Source: Candidatus Ratteibacteria bacterium
Lineage (GTDB): Bacteria > Ratteibacteria > UBA8468 > B48-G9 > DTJG01
Assembly: GCA_041656495.1 (NCBI GenBank)
Contig: JBBADJ010000004.1
Span: forward strand, 84,644 to 148,643
Length of the DNA stretch: 64,000 nt
Reading direction: 5' to 3'
In this document: positions 3,569 to 54,477 of the stretch, piece by piece
How the letters are laid out: the number at the start of each line of letters is the position of its first letter
Position numbering within the stretch: the first letter of the stretch is position 1
Position numbers and translations under genes: made by a program
Notes under the pieces: generated by a model
The model's input: only the letters and a program-made list of their open reading frames with translations
Told to the model about the DNA's origin: nothing
Database searches by the model: none

Positions 3569-4609
3569 ATGCACAAATGGAAAATCGGAACTATCATAGG
3601 AATATTCATTCTTTCCGCGTTCCTTCTTTCTTCTCCTTCCGCATACAGCCAAAGAAAGAGCACCGCAAAACCGATTGAATTGGCATACTCCATCTTCTTT
3701 CCTACAAACCATACGCTCTCTCTTTCTGCGGCGGCATGGGCGAAAGAAATAGAAAAAAGGAGTAATGGAAGAGTCAAAATCAACCTCTTTTATGGCGGAA
3801 CCTTGACCCCTGCCGACAAATGTTACGATGGCGTGGAAAAAGGTATTTCCGACCTTGGACAGTCCTGTATGGCATACTCTCGGGGACGCTTTCCCTTGAG
3901 CGAAGTTATAGATCTTCCCCTCGGCTACCAGAACGGGCTTCAGGCAACCAGAGTAATCAATGCCTTTTACCGTAAGTTTAAACCTGCGGAATATGCGGGT
4001 GTTCAGGTAATGTATTTTCATGCCCATGGACCAGGACTTCTTCATACCAAAAGTCCTGTCCGCTCTTTGGAACAGGTAAAAGGAAAAAAAATACGCTGTA
4101 CGGGTCTTGCCGCAAAAGTGGTAACTTCTCTCGGAGGAGTACCGGTGGCAATGCCTATGGGAGAAACCTATGATGCATTAAGCCGAGGTATTGTCAATGG
4201 TTCAATGGCGCCTGTGGAATCTCTTGAAAACTGGAAGTGGGGAGAAGTTGTCGGATGTACCACAGAAAATTATGGCTCTTCTTACACAACCGGAATGTTT
4301 GTTGTAATGAATAAAAATAAATGGAATAGCCTTCCTGCGGATATCAAACAGATCTTTCTCAGAGTCAATAATGAATGGATTGATAAGAGCGGAAGAGCAT
4401 GGGACGAAGCTGACGCAAAAGGAAGAATCTTTATCAAAAAACTCGGCAATACAGTTGTTCCCATTTCAAAAAAAGAAAATGCGCGATGGGCGAAAGCTGT
4501 AAAACCGATTATGGATGAATATGTAACCGCAATGCAAGCAAAAAGACTTCCGGGAAAAGAAGCGCTTGACTTCTGTCTTTCACAGGTAAGACGATTTGCG
4601 CCTAAATAA
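3569..4609 (+). CDS. TRAP transporter solute-binding protein, DctP family (paralogue 1)
   Basis: N-terminal signal peptide. DctP-family similarity over the full length. Near-identical stretches to the second copy at 6386-7411. Confidence 0.8.
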   Translation: MHKWKIGTIIGIFILSAFLLSSPSAYSQRKSTAKPIELAYSIFFPTNHTLSLSAAAWAKEIEKRSNGRVKINLFYGGTLTPADKCYDGVEKGISDLGQSCMAYSRGRFPLSEVIDLPLGYQNGLQATRVINAFYRKFKPAEYAGVQVMYFHAHGPGLLHTKSPVRSLEQVKGKKIRCTGLAAKVVTSLGGVPVAMPMGETYDALSRGIVNGSMAPVESLENWKWGEVVGCTTENYGSSYTTGMFVVMNKNKWNSLPADIKQIFLRVNNEWIDKSGRAWDEADAKGRIFIKKLGNTVVPISKKENARWAKAVKPIMDEYVTAMQAKRLPGKEALDFCLSQVRRFAPK

Positions 4610-43513: not shown

Positions 43514-44143
43514 TTATCTCCAGATAATATCGCTTCCAAACATTTTACCGTCAATATTATAGTGGGTATATTTTTTCCAATCTGAATGTCCATCTATAAA
43601 AAGAATATTGTTCCCTCCGTTATGTGGTCCCTGTGCAACATTAACATATTCTGGATATGCAACATTGAAAAAATCAGTACAGCGCCAAGGATAGTTTCTG
43701 TTAGCAGGATCAATATCTGTCAAAAGCAACCATCTATGTGAATTGTTTACACGATCTATCTTTTTCCGAGATAACCAACGATTCATTGTATAGCCTACCT
43801 GATTTGAATATGAATGTTTTAATACAGACGGACATCGGAAAACAGTGTTTCTTTTTCCAGAAGAATCATGAGAGCCTACATATTTTCCAATATAGTTTCC
43901 CCAGTGATCAGCACCTTCTGTAGCAAGTGGTAAATACCCATTGTTTTCTTGAGTATACATAAAAAAAGCTAAATATAGTTGTTTTAAATTATTCACACAT
44001 ACAACGGTTCTTGCTCTTTCTCTTGCTCGTGAGAGCGCGGGCAGAAGCATTGCCGCTAAAATAGCAATGATCGAAATCACTACAAGGAATTCTATCAAGG
44101 TGAATCCATGTGATTTGCGAGAAATCACTTTTCCATTAAACAT
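43514..44143 (-). CDS. prepilin-type N-terminal cleavage/methylation domain protein with H-X9-DG motif
   Basis: [26 protein letters not shown]-terminus. C-terminal [13 protein letters not shown]. Confidence 0.85.
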
Positions 44144-45530: not shown

Positions 45531-46280
45531 TTACGGATAGACTGCAGGAGGATCTCTAGGAACTGTTTTATCAGGCCGTGGATCAATCCGTACTGTTCTG
45601 TCAATTACATAGCCGGTCTGGTAGGTGCCTGTCATCATATCATTCATTTCGCAGGGCCTCCACTCTACATGGCCGTCGCAGAAGAGAATATTGGTTCCTC
45701 CATTATGGTTTGCCGCGCTTACATCACTGCGAAGACGGGAAGGTTCCCGTATATAAAATGTCCAAGAGTAGCCGCTGAGAGAGACACAGGCAACAAGAAG
45801 CGTATTTCCCGGTTCTTTCAGATTGCCTGCTTTTATCCATGGATAGGTGTACCAATTAGTTGATACCTGGGGAAGCTGTACATTATATCCATAACTACCG
45901 AAAGATTGAGTAACAGATTGGTGAATTTTATCAGATCCGCACCAGAAGGGAAGATTGCTCCGTTTTGCTACAGGAACTTGATAAGCATAGGTGTAAGCTC
46001 CAAGATATTTTCCATTCCTTTTCACGCCCATTGCTTCGGCGATAAGGTCAAACCAGTAGAAAGCTTGATAATATCTTGAAGGAGGATAAAAATCATCATA
46101 ATCATTATTATAGACCGCGAATCCTATTGCCATCTGTTTCAGATTGCTCATACAGACTGCCTGACGCGCCTTTTCTCTTGCTCGTGAGAGCGCGGGCAGA
46201 AGCATTGCCGCTAAAATAGCAATAATCGCAATAACAACCAAGAGTTCTATTAAGGTAAAACCACTGCATTTTTTTTTCAT
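45531..46280 (-). CDS. prepilin-type N-terminal cleavage/methylation domain protein with H-X9-DG motif (paralogue)
   Basis: [26 protein letters not shown]-terminus. [13 protein letters not shown] near the C-terminus. Shares a 51-bp identical DNA stretch with 43514-44143. Confidence 0.85.
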
Positions 46281-47196: not shown

Positions 47197-47514
47197 GTGC
47201 GATGGGGAGATATGAAAAATAAATATACTTATTATTTTGCTATAATAATAGAGAAGGGAGAAGATGGATATATGTCTTATGCTCCTGGCGTGGGTGGCGT
47301 GTATGAAGAAGGGGCAACAAAAAAAGAAGCTATAGAAAACGCATACAAAGCAGCATGCGCTATTTTAGAAACTCGGATACAACGTAACGACCCACTTACT
47401 GAAAATAATAAATACCTTAGAGTTATAACTTCCGTACCAAACTATAAAGAAATTAATGAGTTTAGTAATATCATTCCTGATGGTTATATTTATACATCTT
47501 TTTGTACCCCCTAA
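47197..47514 (+). CDS. hicB: HicB-family antitoxin (UPF0150)
   Basis: Small protein with HicB-like pattern (YAPGVGGVYEEGATKKEAIENAYKA). Overlaps the downstream hicA-like gene. The start is either GTG 47197 or ATG 47212. Confidence 0.6.
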   Translation: MRWGDMKNKYTYYFAIIIEKGEDGYMSYAPGVGGVYEEGATKKEAIENAYKAACAILETRIQRNDPLTENNKYLRVITSVPNYKEINEFSNIIPDGYIYTSFCTP

Positions 47515-47804
47515 CTATGTTTCCTTTCATAAAAAAAGAATGGAGTAAATCTGAGTGGGGGCAATTAAAAAATCTTACCCCGAAAGATTTAATTACTCTT
47601 CTCAAGAAAGATACTCGTTGGGAATTGGTAAAAACAAAAGGTTCACGTTATATATTTTATAATGTAAAATTGGAAACACCTTACCAATATTTAGAAATTC
47701 ACCACCATAAAAAAGGGTATAGAAACAAAGGTTTACTGAAAAGTATTTTAGATCAATGGTGTTGCACGAAAAATGATTTTAAAAAATGGAATGTAATTAA
47801 ATAG
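47502..47804 (+). CDS. hicA: HicA-like (YcfA family) mRNA-interferase toxin
   Basis: YcfA/HicA pattern LLKKDTRWELVKTKGSRYIF...HHHK...LLKSIL. The canonical GSHH is replaced by GSRY. Confidence 0.5.
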   Translation: MYPLTMFPFIKKEWSKSEWGQLKNLTPKDLITLLKKDTRWELVKTKGSRYIFYNVKLETPYQYLEIHHHKKGYRNKGLLKSILDQWCCTKNDFKKWNVIK

Positions 47805-48002: not shown

Positions 48003-48306
48003 GGGTGGGTGAGGAGATGTTGGCGCCCCTCACTTTCGGAACGTTCGGGGTCGGACACACGTTGGCAATCCTGCCTCTTCGTCGGGTTTCCTGACTTCGC
48101 TCCTTTCAAATCCCCTGAAGGAAATCTTTTTTGGGTCAATGGGAAGAAATAGTTCAAACCTCTAAGATAACCTGTCCGGAGTTTTTGAAGAAGATAAATA
48201 CATTTTGTACATCTATCACTTAAAAGAATAAAATCAGCTCGTGTAACCTCCTCCTCTTTGTAAACTATCCAATCTTCATACACTTACTTCCAATTTCTGT
48301 ATGAGA
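48003..48306 (+). repeat. att-like repeat copy A: tRNA-His 3'-end core (GGGTGGGTGAGGAGA) plus ~290 bp extension
   Basis: Direct repeat of copy B (49935-50183) with a ~65-bp insertion. Contains the hairpin GTGAGGAG / CCCCTCAC. Confidence 0.7.
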
Positions 48307-48522
48307 CTATCTCCTATGCTTAGAGAAAAAGTAGTAGTCTTATAGGTAAAAAAAACTAAAACCACCGAGCTATAAATGTTTCGCTATCTCTTCTTCTCAT
48401 TTTGCCCCCTTTAATACTTTTAAATTATTATACATCTAAAAGCCCTGTCCAGTTTTGAAGACAACTTCATTTTTTCGTCTAAATTTATTATGAGGTAATT
48501 CGTTTTCTTGACAAAAAGAATA

Positions 48523-49140
48523 ATGTCAGTTAAAATATTTAGCAATATGGCTAAATTACTGAATTGGATAAATGCTGAAAAAAAAATAAGAGATTGCGGA
48601 ATTACAATATTCTCTCCTGTTGATCTGAAACGAATATTTGGAGTTTCAGAAGTATCTGTCCGTTTTTTTCTAACGAGATATGTCAAAAAAGGAGCAATTG
48701 TTAAGTTGCGTAACAGCCTTTATACGTTAAATAACAATATCCCTTCAGAGGTTGAGATTGCGAACGCTCTTTATCGTCCGTCATATATTTCTCTTACTTA
48801 TGCACTTGCATATTACCATATTATTCCGGAAATGGTTTACTCTATTACATCAGTAACTACTCTTCCGACAGCAAGATTTAACGCTATAAACAAGGAATTT
48901 CGTTACCATAAAATAAAGGCATCTGTTTTTACTGGATATTCGCCTGTGAAAATTGAAGGCAAAACAATACTTTTTGCATGTAAAGAAAAAGCTTTTGTGG
49001 ATTATCTTTATTTTGTTCTAAGAAAATCCTATAAATTAAATGAAAGAATTGATATTTCTGGACTTGATAAAAAAGAATTAACTAAATATGTTAAATTGTT
49101 TAACAATAAAGGAATAAATGAATTAATTGAGAGGATATAA
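48523..49140 (+). CDS. AbiEi-family antitoxin/transcriptional regulator (type IV TA)
   Basis: About 200 aa with AbiEi-like architecture. Its stop overlaps the start of the AbiEii gene (ATAATG). The track ORF starts at a TTG at 48508. Confidence 0.5.
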   Translation: MSVKIFSNMAKLLNWINAEKKIRDCGITIFSPVDLKRIFGVSEVSVRFFLTRYVKKGAIVKLRNSLYTLNNNIPSEVEIANALYRPSYISLTYALAYYHIIPEMVYSITSVTTLPTARFNAINKEFRYHKIKASVFTGYSPVKIEGKTILFACKEKAFVDYLYFVLRKSYKLNERIDISGLDKKELTKYVKLFNNKGINELIERI

Positions 49141-49865
49141 TGTTAGGTAGAGAGATTATAAAGCAGATGGCTATTCAAAAAAAAACAACTGAGATAAATA
49201 TTGCTCGAGAATATATTCAACATCTATTTTTGTCTTTTTTTTATCAAGAAAGAAAGTCAGAACAGGTGCTTTTTAAGGGCGGAACTGCTTTGCGGATTGC
49301 TTACCTTAGCCCTCGTTTTTCTGAAGACCTTGATTTTTCAGGGTTTAATATAAAAATAGAAGAGTTAGAAACAATATTGATAAATATAATGAGCAAACTA
49401 GATAAAATGGGCGTTATTGTGGATTTATCAGAGAGTAAAAAAACTTCAGGAGGATATATTGGAGCTATCAATGCAGAATTTTCTGGGTATAAGACTCGGA
49501 TACTTCTTGAGGTTTCATTTCGTAAAAGAAAGACAAAAATTGCTGGAGAGCCAATGCTAATAGCGAGTGATTTTCTGCCTCCTTATACAATTTCTATACT
49601 TCCATCTAAAGACTTAATTGATGAAAAACTCTCAGCTGTGTTAACACGGGCAAAGGCGAGGGATTATTACGACCTTTATTTTCTTCTTCGTAAAGGTCTT
49701 ATTACAGTTGAACAGAGAAAGTGTCTTAATAGTATCAAAGAAAAAATAAAAAATGACAAAGTATATATAGAAAAAGAGCTAAAAGATTTTCTCCCTGCTG
49801 ACCAACAAAAACTTATTAGAAATTTTAATGAAATCTTGCTAAGAGAAGTTTCTCAATACGTGTAG
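49140..49865 (+). CDS. AbiEii/AbiGii-family nucleotidyltransferase toxin (DUF1814)
   Basis: Motifs GGTALRIAYLSPRFSEDLDF and RDYYDLYFLL. 241 aa. Confidence 0.7.
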   Translation: MLGREIIKQMAIQKKTTEINIAREYIQHLFLSFFYQERKSEQVLFKGGTALRIAYLSPRFSEDLDFSGFNIKIEELETILINIMSKLDKMGVIVDLSESKKTSGGYIGAINAEFSGYKTRILLEVSFRKRKTKIAGEPMLIASDFLPPYTISILPSKDLIDEKLSAVLTRAKARDYYDLYFLLRKGLITVEQRKCLNSIKEKIKNDKVYIEKELKDFLPADQQKLIRNFNEILLREVSQYV

Positions 49866-49934: not shown

Positions 49935-50183
49935 GGGTGGGTGAGGGGATGTTGGCGCCCCTCACTTTCGAAGCGTTCGGGGTCGGACATCCGCTAGCAA
50001 TCCAGTGGATCAATGGGAGGAGGTAGTTCAAACCTCTAAGATAACCTGTTCGGAGTTTTTGAAGAAGATAAATACATTTTGTGCATCTATCACTTAAAAC
50101 TATAAAATCAGCTCGTGTAGCCTCCTCCTCTTTGTAAACTATCTAATCTCCAACCATTTATTTCCAATTTCTAAAGTATGAGT
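49935..50183 (+). repeat. att-like repeat copy B (tRNA-His 3'-end core plus extension)
   Basis: About 90% identical to copy A. Has the perfect 8-bp hairpin GTGAGGGG-N9-CCCCTCAC. Confidence 0.7.
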
Positions 50184-52755: not shown

Positions 52756-52784
52756 TTGGCTTATACAACAATGTTTGGTATAAT
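52756..52784 (+). promoter_or_regulatory. promoter TTGGCT-N17-TGgTATAAT (extended -10)
   Basis: Read directly from the sequence. Followed by an AGGAGG Shine-Dalgarno at 52796-52801. Confidence 0.35.
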
Positions 52785-52788
52785 ACTT

Positions 52789-53196
52789 ATGAAACAGGAG
52801 GTTATCTTGAGCATAGTAATCAAAACAATAGGGAAACAACAATATGCATATCAGGCTTATCGTAATGGGAACAGGATAGTGCAGAAATATCTGGGAAATA
52901 TTGCCGACAATAAGGTGAAAAAAATGCTGGAAGAATTAAAAAGAACGAATCAAGTGCAACAACGATTCTATCCCTTATTCTGGGACGTAGAACCTAACAA
53001 GATTAACATTCGCAAAAATGCCAGATATATTATTGAGCGTGTCCTGGAAGTGGGAGACACAGCCGCATTTCAATGGATACAAAATATGTATCCAACGCGT
53101 TTGATTCTGGATACATGCAACACAAGCCGAAAAATATCCGAAAAATCAAGAATATTCTGGAAAATCTGGCTGGGGGAAATGTCCAATGCACAATGA
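52789..53196 (+). CDS. small protein, putative antitoxin/regulator partner of the downstream nucleotidyltransferase
   Basis: Overlaps the downstream AbiEii-like gene by 11 nt. No HTH recognised. The start is uncertain: ATG 52789, or TTG 52807 after the SD. Confidence 0.35.
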   Translation: MKQEVILSIVIKTIGKQQYAYQAYRNGNRIVQKYLGNIADNKVKKMLEELKRTNQVQQRFYPLFWDVEPNKINIRKNARYIIERVLEVGDTAAFQWIQNMYPTRLILDTCNTSRKISEKSRIFWKIWLGEMSNAQ

Positions 53197-53839
53197 ATGT
53201 TTTCCAAAAAAAGGTATAGACGTTTTAAAACGATTGAAACCTATTATCAAGACACGCCGTTTCATTTTAGCCGGTGAAACCGCCGCCGCAATACAGATTG
53301 GACATAGGATATCTGAAGATCTTGATTTCTTTGCCGCTCAGTCGTTTTCAACCGATGAAATTCTCAATGAAATTAAACAACAGAAACTTAATTTTTCACT
53401 TCTACAGGAAGAACAGAATACATTGACAAGCATTATAGAAAATACCAAGGTATCTCTATTTTGCTACCCCTACCCTTTCATTGAGAAATACGTCAGTTGG
53501 CAAGGCATTTCAGTTGCCAGTCTTACGGATATCGCCTCCATGAAGGTTATTGCCATAAGCCAACGAGGGGCGAAAAGAGATTTTGTTGATATGTATTTTA
53601 TTCTACGTTCAATACCATTTTGGAGAATTGCCGATAATATGATTCAACGCTTTGGAACTGCCAGAATCAACCCCGTGCATATTGGTAAATCGTTGGTATA
53701 CTTTCATGATGCTGAAGTTGACCCAGACCCTCATTACTGTTTGGGATACGAAACAAATTGGCAAGCTATCAAAGTATTTTTCATAAACCATGTTCAGCAA
53801 TTGGTAATAGATTTGCAGAGAGCAAAAGAAACAGGATAA
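53186..53839 (+). CDS. AbiEii-like nucleotidyltransferase (short form)
   Basis: Shares GxTAxxxxxxxRxSEDLDFF and (K/A)RDF(V/Y)DMYF(I/L)L motifs with the 49140-49865 product. Confidence 0.55.
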   Translation: MHNECFPKKGIDVLKRLKPIIKTRRFILAGETAAAIQIGHRISEDLDFFAAQSFSTDEILNEIKQQKLNFSLLQEEQNTLTSIIENTKVSLFCYPYPFIEKYVSWQGISVASLTDIASMKVIAISQRGAKRDFVDMYFILRSIPFWRIADNMIQRFGTARINPVHIGKSLVYFHDAEVDPDPHYCLGYETNWQAIKVFFINHVQQLVIDLQRAKETG

Positions 53840-53909
53840 CTGTTTATATCAAAACGTAATGTTCCAACTAAATCCTCCAGAAATAAGTGCACCGCAACGA
53901 TTTCAGGCT

Positions 53910-54296
53910 GGGTGGGTGAGGGGATGTTGGCGCCCTCGCTTCCCACTACAGCTCGGGTCGGCCACTCGCTGGCAATCCTGCCTCTTCGTCGGATTGCCTG
54001 ACTTCGCTCAATTCAAATCCCCTGAAGGAAAACTTTTTGGGTGGGTGAGGGGATGTTGGCGCCTTCGCCTTTCGATACGGCTCAGGTCGGCCACTCGCTG
54101 GCAATCCTGCCTCTTCGTCGGATTGCCTGACTTCGCTCAATTCAAATCCCCTGAAGGAAAACTTTTTGGGTGGGTGAGGGGATGTTGGCGCCCCTCACTT
54201 TCGGAACGTTCGGGGTCGGCCATCCGCGAAGATTGCTGCGCTCACTCGCAATCTTTCCACTTCGCTCCTTTCAAATCCCCTGAAGGAAAACTTTTT
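53910..54296 (+). repeat. three tandem 129-bp repeat units, each beginning with the tRNA-His 3'-terminal 15-16 nt
   Basis: Unit starts at 53910, 54039 and 54168. Each ends with TTCAAATCCCCTGAAGGAAAACTTTTTG. The first third of each unit is variable. Confidence 0.8.
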
Positions 54297-54370
54297 GGGT
54301 GGGTGAGGGGATTTGAACCCCCGACATCCAGAGCCACAGTCTGGCGCTCTGCCCCTGAGCTACACCCACC
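54297..54370 (-). tRNA. tRNA-His (anticodon GUG) with encoded G-1
   Basis: Manual fold of the reverse complement: acceptor GUGGGUG/CACCCAC with G-1:C73, D-stem GCUC/GAGC, anticodon stem CCAGA/UCUGG, loop CUGUGGC (GUG), T-arm GGGGG-UUCAAAU-CCCCU. Confidence 0.85.
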
Positions 54371-54477
54371 ATATAACTGTAAACTACTATATCTTACCTT
54401 GTTTCAGTGATTTGTAAAGATACTACTGTGTTCTAAGAAAAAACTCTTCTCTGCAAGAAAAAAATGAAGTTATGATA

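Follow-up and report, generated by a model that had tools for sequence, protein, structure and literature searches.

A DUF6922 protein as the putative antitoxin of a compact DUF1814 nucleotidyltransferase in Candidatus Ratteibacteria

Two overlapping genes of a Candidatus Ratteibacteria bacterium probably make up a self-contained, autoregulated operon of the toxin-antitoxin (TA) kind, in which a nucleotidyltransferase (NTase) of the DUF1814 (AbiEii/MenT) family goes with a different antitoxin, a protein of family DUF6922. They lie on the + strand at 52807-53196 (the partner) and 53186-53839 (the NTase) of a 64,000-nucleotide stretch of DNA, the window (assembly GCA_041656495.1, contig JBBADJ010000004.1, positions 84,644 to 148,643 of the forward strand). 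The original prediction, a reading of the window without database searches, had proposed here a variant TA pair with a novel antitoxin. This interpretation is supported by the families to which the two proteins belong, by a partner that is not AbiEi and by the near-obligate pairing of the two genes. DUF6922 was already known as a database family without a function; new are the near-obligate pairing, the modular architecture of the antitoxin and an operator kept across phyla.

The layout of the module is compact. The partner gene stops with TGA at 53194-53196, 11 nt inside the NTase gene, which starts at 53186 and codes for 217 residues. These two open reading frames (ORFs) had been described correctly, as had the resulting 11-nt overlap (53186-53196), which suggests translational coupling; nearly all homologous loci likewise show short overlaps or very short gaps between the two genes. 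The start of the partner had to be moved. What was taken as the start, 52756, is no more than the earliest TTG in frame, and it falls on the -35 hexamer of the promoter. The N-termini of 37 homologues read M-S-I-V-I-K, which in the window corresponds to TTG 52807, and the partner, putatively antitoxin and autorepressor at once, is therefore most likely 129 residues long. The roughly 135 residues first assigned to it can be had from an alternative in-frame ATG at 52789, 4 nt past the -10 hexamer, and some annotation pipelines call the gene in this way, but the shorter form is the most likely one. A Shine-Dalgarno sequence AGGAGG is present, as predicted, at 52796-52801, 5 nt ahead of TTG 52807. 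A scan for intrinsic terminators downstream of the module found none.

The downstream protein is assigned to the DUF1814/AbiEii family of NTases, and considered a putative toxin, on the basis of Pfam, AlphaFold2 (AF2) and Foldseek. It matches PF08843 (AbiEii) with an E-value of 1.8e-12 (48.1 bits against a gathering score of 22.5) and 12 AbiEii models of PADLOC, the best at 1.9e-10. A Candidatus Ratteibacteria metagenome-assembled genome (MAG) encodes an identical protein (100%), which carries the NCBI name 'nucleotidyl transferase AbiEii/AbiGii toxin family protein'. The AF2 model, with a mean predicted local distance difference test score (pLDDT) of 96, has the two-lobed fold of MenT-like NTases, and the nearest solved structures in Foldseek are JHP933 (1e-7), MenT4 (1.7e-5) and MenT1 (7e-5), all with probability 1.00. 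Residues S43, D45, D47, K120, R131 and D135 are invariant in 30 aligned homologues and kept in the window. Mapped by motif order, the NTase residues match S67/D69/K171/D186 of MenT4 and S78/D80/K189/D211 of MenT3 in order and spacing, and these include the phospho-acceptor serine and residues required for toxicity (PMC7450476).

A first pair of the same general kind, a canonical AbiEi/AbiEii system (PADLOC AbiEi 5e-43, AbiEii 2.5e-28), occupies 48508-49865. The NTase had been said to share its hallmark motifs with the AbiEii of this pair (49140-49865). The likeness is real, as both proteins pass the Pfam AbiEii threshold, but limited in extent: BLASTP aligns them at E 2e-5 over 34 residues around KRDFVDMYFIL, in the C-terminal K...RDxxDxYF block, and apart from RISEDLDFF facing RFSEDLDFS, matched by eye, the resemblance is confined to that block. 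As for an N-terminus about 25 residues shorter than that of the first AbiEii, the NTase is indeed 24 residues shorter overall, but up to the G-x-T motif the difference is about 17.

The partner is where the module departs from the AbiE pattern. It had been called unrecognised, which holds for its function, none being assigned to DUF6922, but not for its family: it matches Pfam PF21956 (DUF6922) over residues 56-100 with an E-value of 4e-15 (55.4 bits against a cut-off of 27). PF21956 is carried by all 119 partner homologues found, and 38/38 of the aligned homologues match it. In the AF2 model (mean pLDDT 88) the protein has two domains. The first, residues 1-47 (52807-52947), consists of a three-stranded antiparallel beta sheet (residues 2-31) and a helix (35-47), with Y13, Y15, R19, Y28 and G30 invariant; an HMM (hidden Markov model) search gave no Pfam match for it, and its putative role, suggested by the model and by the motif co-occurrence described below, is operator binding. 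Its sheet and helix make it at most a candidate for the fold of AP2 and integrase arm-type DNA-binding domains. The second, residues 52-121 (52960-53169), delimited by HMM and AF2, is a bundle of five helices that contains DUF6922 and is putatively toxin-handling; its invariant residues are the FWD of 58-60, Y74, E77, R78, W90, F117, W118 and W121. HMM searches agree that the partner has no obvious helix-turn-helix. A search of the Protein Data Bank with the sequence profile of the partner, and with the NTase, returned nothing meaningful. Some homologues bear precomputed marks of PF20586 (DUF6788), which we dropped because hmmscan did not recover them at E <= 0.1.

Could the partner nevertheless be a very divergent AbiEi, and the module an ordinary AbiE system? 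The NTase passes the Pfam AbiEii threshold, a canonical AbiEi/AbiEii pair sits 3.3 kb upstream and the operon layout is the same in both. Yet every test applied to this explanation, whether HMM, BLAST or fold search, went against it, and we hold it to be very improbable. No AbiEi model of Pfam, NCBIfam or PADLOC matches the partner at E <= 1, in keeping with the early impression that it does not look like AbiEi; by contrast, the neighbouring AbiEi (48508-49140) matches 19 PADLOC AbiEi models. BLASTP of the partner against this local AbiEi gives an E-value of 27, and the predicted folds differ.

The family is large and varied in its architecture. An exhaustive HMM search gave 1,977 cluster representatives at E <= 1e-3, most of them 75-105 residues long; 22 of these reach E <= 1e-30, and full-length matches, of the long form seen in the window, are concentrated there. 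At distant loci (Aminicenantes, Candidate Phyla Radiation [CPR], Acidobacteriota) the partner is a 75-100-residue DUF6922 protein alone, or DUF6922 fused to a DeoR-like winged helix-turn-helix (wHTH). The existence of such short and wHTH-fused forms means that DUF6922 is the constant companion of the NTase, while the N-terminal module is exchangeable. The family has other variants as well (P0271, P0364, P0387), among them one protein with two tandem DUF6922 domains. In two variant ORFs DUF6922 is fused to a fragment of the NTase (the part with HRISDDLDFF or that with VYFQDAENDP), and these are probably frameshifted or decayed modules. A protein of 1,046 residues with 15 matched stretches (P0300) turned out to be a translated simple repeat and was discarded as a relative.

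How tightly the two genes go together was measured from both sides. A scan with the partner profile, limited to one genome for each species, left 80 loci, and in 76 of them an NTase homologue stands directly downstream of the partner; of the remaining four, two are truncated fragments of the partner, one is a short contig tail and one a contig end. Scanning metagenome contigs with the NTase profile likewise left 80 loci, six of them without room upstream, and a DUF6922 ORF, usually overlapping by a few nucleotides, lies directly upstream of the NTase in 73 of the 74 informative ones. A profile search for co-occurrence, as had been proposed at the outset, thus finds the genes paired in both directions, and the NTase gene is not commonly solo. 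The order, partner then NTase, is constant over about 150 homologous loci. Carriers are found in Nitrospirota, Desulfobacterota/'Deltaproteobacteria', Elusimicrobia, Spirochaetota, Bdellovibrionota, Myxococcota, Aminicenantes, Acidobacteriota, Chloroflexota, several CPR lineages and Ratteibacteria, and nearly all these genomes are MAGs; one NTase homologue is labelled Methanosarcinales. A related Ratteibacteria MAG has the same module, at 66% identity, in an unrelated neighbourhood, and such differing neighbourhoods in related genomes are consistent with a mobile cassette.

Upstream of the partner the window has a promoter-like site at 52756-52784, made of a -35-like hexamer TTGGCT (52756-52761; TTGAC/TTGAT is conserved at homologous loci), a 17-nt spacer and TATAAT with a TG extension. 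This extended -10, TGgTATAAT (52776-52784), is seen in the sequence and in a promoter scan. The near-consensus extended -10 promoter of the original prediction is thus present, and its conservation across homologous loci is far above chance, but taken alone it is no rarer than chance, 2 such sites being found against 3.9 expected in shuffles. When 98 distinct loci of the long form were aligned over the 120 nt that precede the partner start, a 24-bp motif emerged that reaches into this promoter, with consensus TTAnnnAACAwTGTkTGgTAAtAT and an information content of 30 bits. Its first 21 bp are the palindrome TTAnnnnACA-w-TGTnnnnTAA, and the TTGAC-like -35 abuts the left arm. In the window the motif, a putative operator, reads TTATACAACAATGTTTGGTATAAT (52761-52784, + strand). 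Its palindromic part covers approximately 52761-52781, with the right arm entering the -10 hexamer. By position weight matrix (PWM) it scores 34.7 bits, the highest value of all loci, and it is the sole + strand site above 12 bits in the window. A search of the promoter region for short repeats had not revealed this operator, which becomes visible only when homologous loci are compared.

The motif stands well clear of chance. The best of 1,960 shuffled controls reaches 16.6 bits, a value exceeded by about 95 of the 98 long-form loci, which come from many phyla. Sites above 17 bits number 188 in the long-form loci, and all but one correspond to the same upstream position, on either strand; reading on both strands, the motif is therefore a palindrome. 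Upstream of the partner gene it is present in none of 40 short-form loci (best 7 bits). It occurs where, and only where, the partner has the N-terminal beta domain, which is the main argument that this domain binds it. One short-form metagenome locus (L154) has a 22.5-bit operator-like site elsewhere in the locus and, downstream of its NTase, another DUF6922-like ORF in inverted orientation (about 3737-3934, minus strand). Within the motif the symmetric positions 7 and 15 covary (A..T 42, C..G 20, A..G 15), and residue 18 of the partner, on the second strand beside the invariant R19, tracks them, being Tyr in 34 of 36 cases with A..T. This covariation is suggestive, with the reservation on shared ancestry given below. 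Leaderless mRNAs are implied for 66 of the 98 long-form loci, where the start codon follows the -10 by only 3-7 nt. In the window and its closest relatives, by contrast, about 22 nt of leader, including a Shine-Dalgarno sequence, precede a TTG start codon. This subclade has gained the AGGAGG/TTG leader, yet retains the in-frame ATG 52789 at the leaderless position.

From these elements, and from what is established for homologous toxins, we infer a scheme that covers toxicity and its target, neutralisation and DNA binding. By analogy with MenT1, MenT3 and AbiEii, the compact NTase would block growth by adding nucleotides to the 3' ends of tRNAs. The C-terminal helical domain of the partner, which is always found with the NTase, would bind and neutralise it. 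The mode that we favour, again from analogy, is an antitoxin-promoted auto-phosphorylation of the serine of the RxSxDxD loop (S43), since this reaction is documented for the unrelated MenA1, MenA3 and AbiEi and the acceptor serine is invariant here. Indeed, auto-phosphorylation of the toxin is induced by these three antitoxins although they are mutually unrelated (PMC11375011; bioRxiv 10.64898/2026.01.19.700257). Stoichiometric sequestration of the NTase is equally compatible with the data. The N-terminal beta-sheet domain, as a dimer, may bind the 21-bp palindrome that overlaps the -10; a dimer seated there would occupy the -10 region, and the operon would in this way repress itself.

Several observations weigh against this picture. 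Most members of the DUF6922 family are without any DNA-binding domain, so that autoregulation is not essential to the pair. By mutual information between operator and protein, residue 18 belongs to the top pair, but averaged over the N-domain the covariation does not exceed that of the rest of the protein, and shared ancestry may for this reason explain the residue-18 signal. The partner was not found in PLSDB plasmids, GenBank phages or IMG/VR viral contigs, hence nothing links the module to phage defence, and any such role would be conjectural. DUF6922 is not mentioned in the literature searched. Lastly, motif I of the NTase reads G-E-T, with Glu at residue 31, where at least 90% of the 30 homologues have Gly (G-G-T) and the active-site set of MenT/DUF1814 toxins has G-[GS]; the copy in the window could as a result be weakened.

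This last point opens the way to a less favourable account, that of a decayed or attenuated remnant, in which the change G31E has disabled the NTase and the module persists without function. The place of the module, within stacked repeats beside a tRNA-His gene, has the look of an accretion zone and would suit it. However, both ORFs are intact and no other invariant residue has been lost. By PWM no other locus outscores this promoter/operator, and several independent assemblies encode exactly the same protein (100% identity). One other homologue moreover has Asp at this second Gly position of motif I, which suggests that an acidic residue is tolerated there. Decay of this sort we regard as unlikely. 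An equally improbable account has no TA pair at all: the NTase would be a benign modifying enzyme (ANT(2'')/Lnu-like, or acting in tRNA repair) and the partner a mere regulator or specificity subunit. Foldseek does give ANT(2'')-Ia, LnuA and CCA-adding enzymes, with weaker E-values, and the missing phage and plasmid copies fit such a role. Against it, PF08843 and the best fold matches are those of DUF1814 toxins, and the module stands in differing genomic surroundings in related genomes, as is usual for TA modules. Furthermore, short-form partners without a DNA-binding domain are still strictly paired with the NTase, their genes overlapping, a behaviour better suited to a protein-protein partner than to a protein that only regulates. 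The Menshen system (NsnABC) was also considered and set aside: the sole hint is a weak PADLOC match to NsnC (E 2e-4, 18.7 bits), within the polymorphic region of NsnC, and taken as noise, and there is neither NsnA (ParB/DUF262) nor NsnB (ABC ATPase) near the module, where the neighbours are catalase, DUF454 and PALP.

The TA-like operon that we favour has well-studied counterparts. In AbiE of Lactococcus lactis and Streptococcus agalactiae (PMC3985639; bioRxiv 10.64898/2026.01.19.700257) we find the same bicistronic overlapping operon with the antitoxin gene first, a toxin of Pfam AbiEii/DUF1814 with the motifs G-x-T ... RxSxDxD ... K ... RDxxD, and a palindrome in the promoter, consistent with negative autoregulation. 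The AbiE antitoxin, however, is AbiEi/COG5340, a protein of about 200 residues with an N-terminal wHTH and a C-terminal antitoxicity domain, whereas the partner described here has about 129 residues, no wHTH, and a beta-sheet N-domain joined to DUF6922. The NTase of the window is also shorter (217 residues) than the AbiE toxin, and the putative operator is a single 21-bp palindrome over the -10. The MenAT systems of Mycobacterium tuberculosis (MenT4, 6Y56; MenAT1, 8AN5; PMC7450476, PMC10435456, PMC11375011) share the DUF1814 NTase fold and an equivalent active-site set of Ser-x-Asp, Lys and Asp, and they provide a precedent for structurally unrelated small antitoxins (MenA1, MenA3) controlling the same toxin fold. 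Sequence identity of the NTase with MenT is only 13-18%, and DUF6922 is unlike both MenA1, a single long helix, and MenA3/MenA4, which are AbiEi-like. The best structural match is JHP933 of Helicobacter pylori (4O8S/4OK0; PMC4125220; E 1e-7, template modelling score about 0.55), similarly compact with about 230 residues, and there too the upstream gene, jhp0932, overlaps that of JHP933 in a TA-like layout (PMC7450476). Identity is 16%, and JHP933 sits in a plasticity zone or integrative and conjugative element of a cultured pathogen. As for PF21956 itself, the Pfam model takes in no more than some 50 residues of the helical domain, and no function is attached to it.

The surroundings of the module are unusual. 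A tRNA-His gene (GTG) lies on the minus strand at 54297-54369, and the 16-nt + strand string GGGTGGGTGAGGGGAT is the reverse complement of its 3' acceptor/T-stem end. This string occurs seven times in the region, always in one orientation (48003, 49935, 52432, 53910, 54039, 54168 and 54297), where none would be expected by chance, and related sequence, up to about 130-300 nt of it, follows each copy. Three segments are enclosed by copies of the string: the AbiE pair, a catalase gene with DUF454, and the DUF6922/NTase pair. The arrangement resembles a stack of att-like duplications or a hotspot for cassette accretion. Within 36-56 kb we saw no integrase. Repeats of about 240-300 nt, about 90% identical, stand on either side of the AbiE pair (48003-48298 and 49935-50172). 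Directly 3' of the tRNA-His gene, three tandem 129-nt units occupy 53909-54295, 68-94% identical to the reference copy 53909-54037, and on the + strand they create a spurious ORF of 183 residues (53859-54410). Two assemblies of the locus (L161 and L162) differ by exactly 129 nt, so that the copy number varies. Just upstream of the first tRNA-His-like repeat, at 47197-47804, an overlapping pair of HicB-like and HicA-like genes (105 and 100 residues) carries faint Pfam marks; counted with AbiE and the DUF6922/NTase pair, it brings the TA-like modules within 7 kb to three. Further upstream, the products of 43514-44143 and 45531-46280 have a prepilin-type N-terminal methylation motif and a DUF1559/SBP_bac_10-like body, a combination typical of Planctomycetes-Verrucomicrobia-Chlamydiae (PVC)-type and candidate phyla and in line with an assignment to Ratteibacteria.

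A wider view may be sketched, tentatively, as we would put its chances a little short of even. DUF6922 would be a large class of antitoxins, of some 2,000 clusters at 50% identity, for compact DUF1814 toxins. Its long form would carry a hitherto undescribed beta-sheet DNA-binding domain for a 21-bp palindrome, making of the module a host-independent, self-regulating cassette that has moved among at least eight phyla with its palindrome and consensus promoter, often with a leaderless start, near-unchanged. The operator code, residue 18 against base pairs 7/15, would then be readable from sequences.

DUF1814 toxins (AbiEii, MenT) are of current interest because antitoxins that are unrelated to each other all seem to provoke auto-phosphorylation of the toxin, and DUF6922 would add a third or fourth unrelated architecture with which to consider this idea. 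The proteins are small (75-130 residues) and abundant in uncultivated Nitrospirota, Desulfobacterota, Elusimicrobia, Aminicenantes, CPR and Ratteibacteria. For genome annotation, the pairing gives a provisional role to a Pfam family of unassigned function, and finders of defence or TA systems that demand AbiEi will miss or mislabel DUF6922/NTase pairs. Finally, the promoter palindrome, shared across phyla, offers a candidate protein-DNA pair and possibly a new small beta-sheet DNA-binding module.
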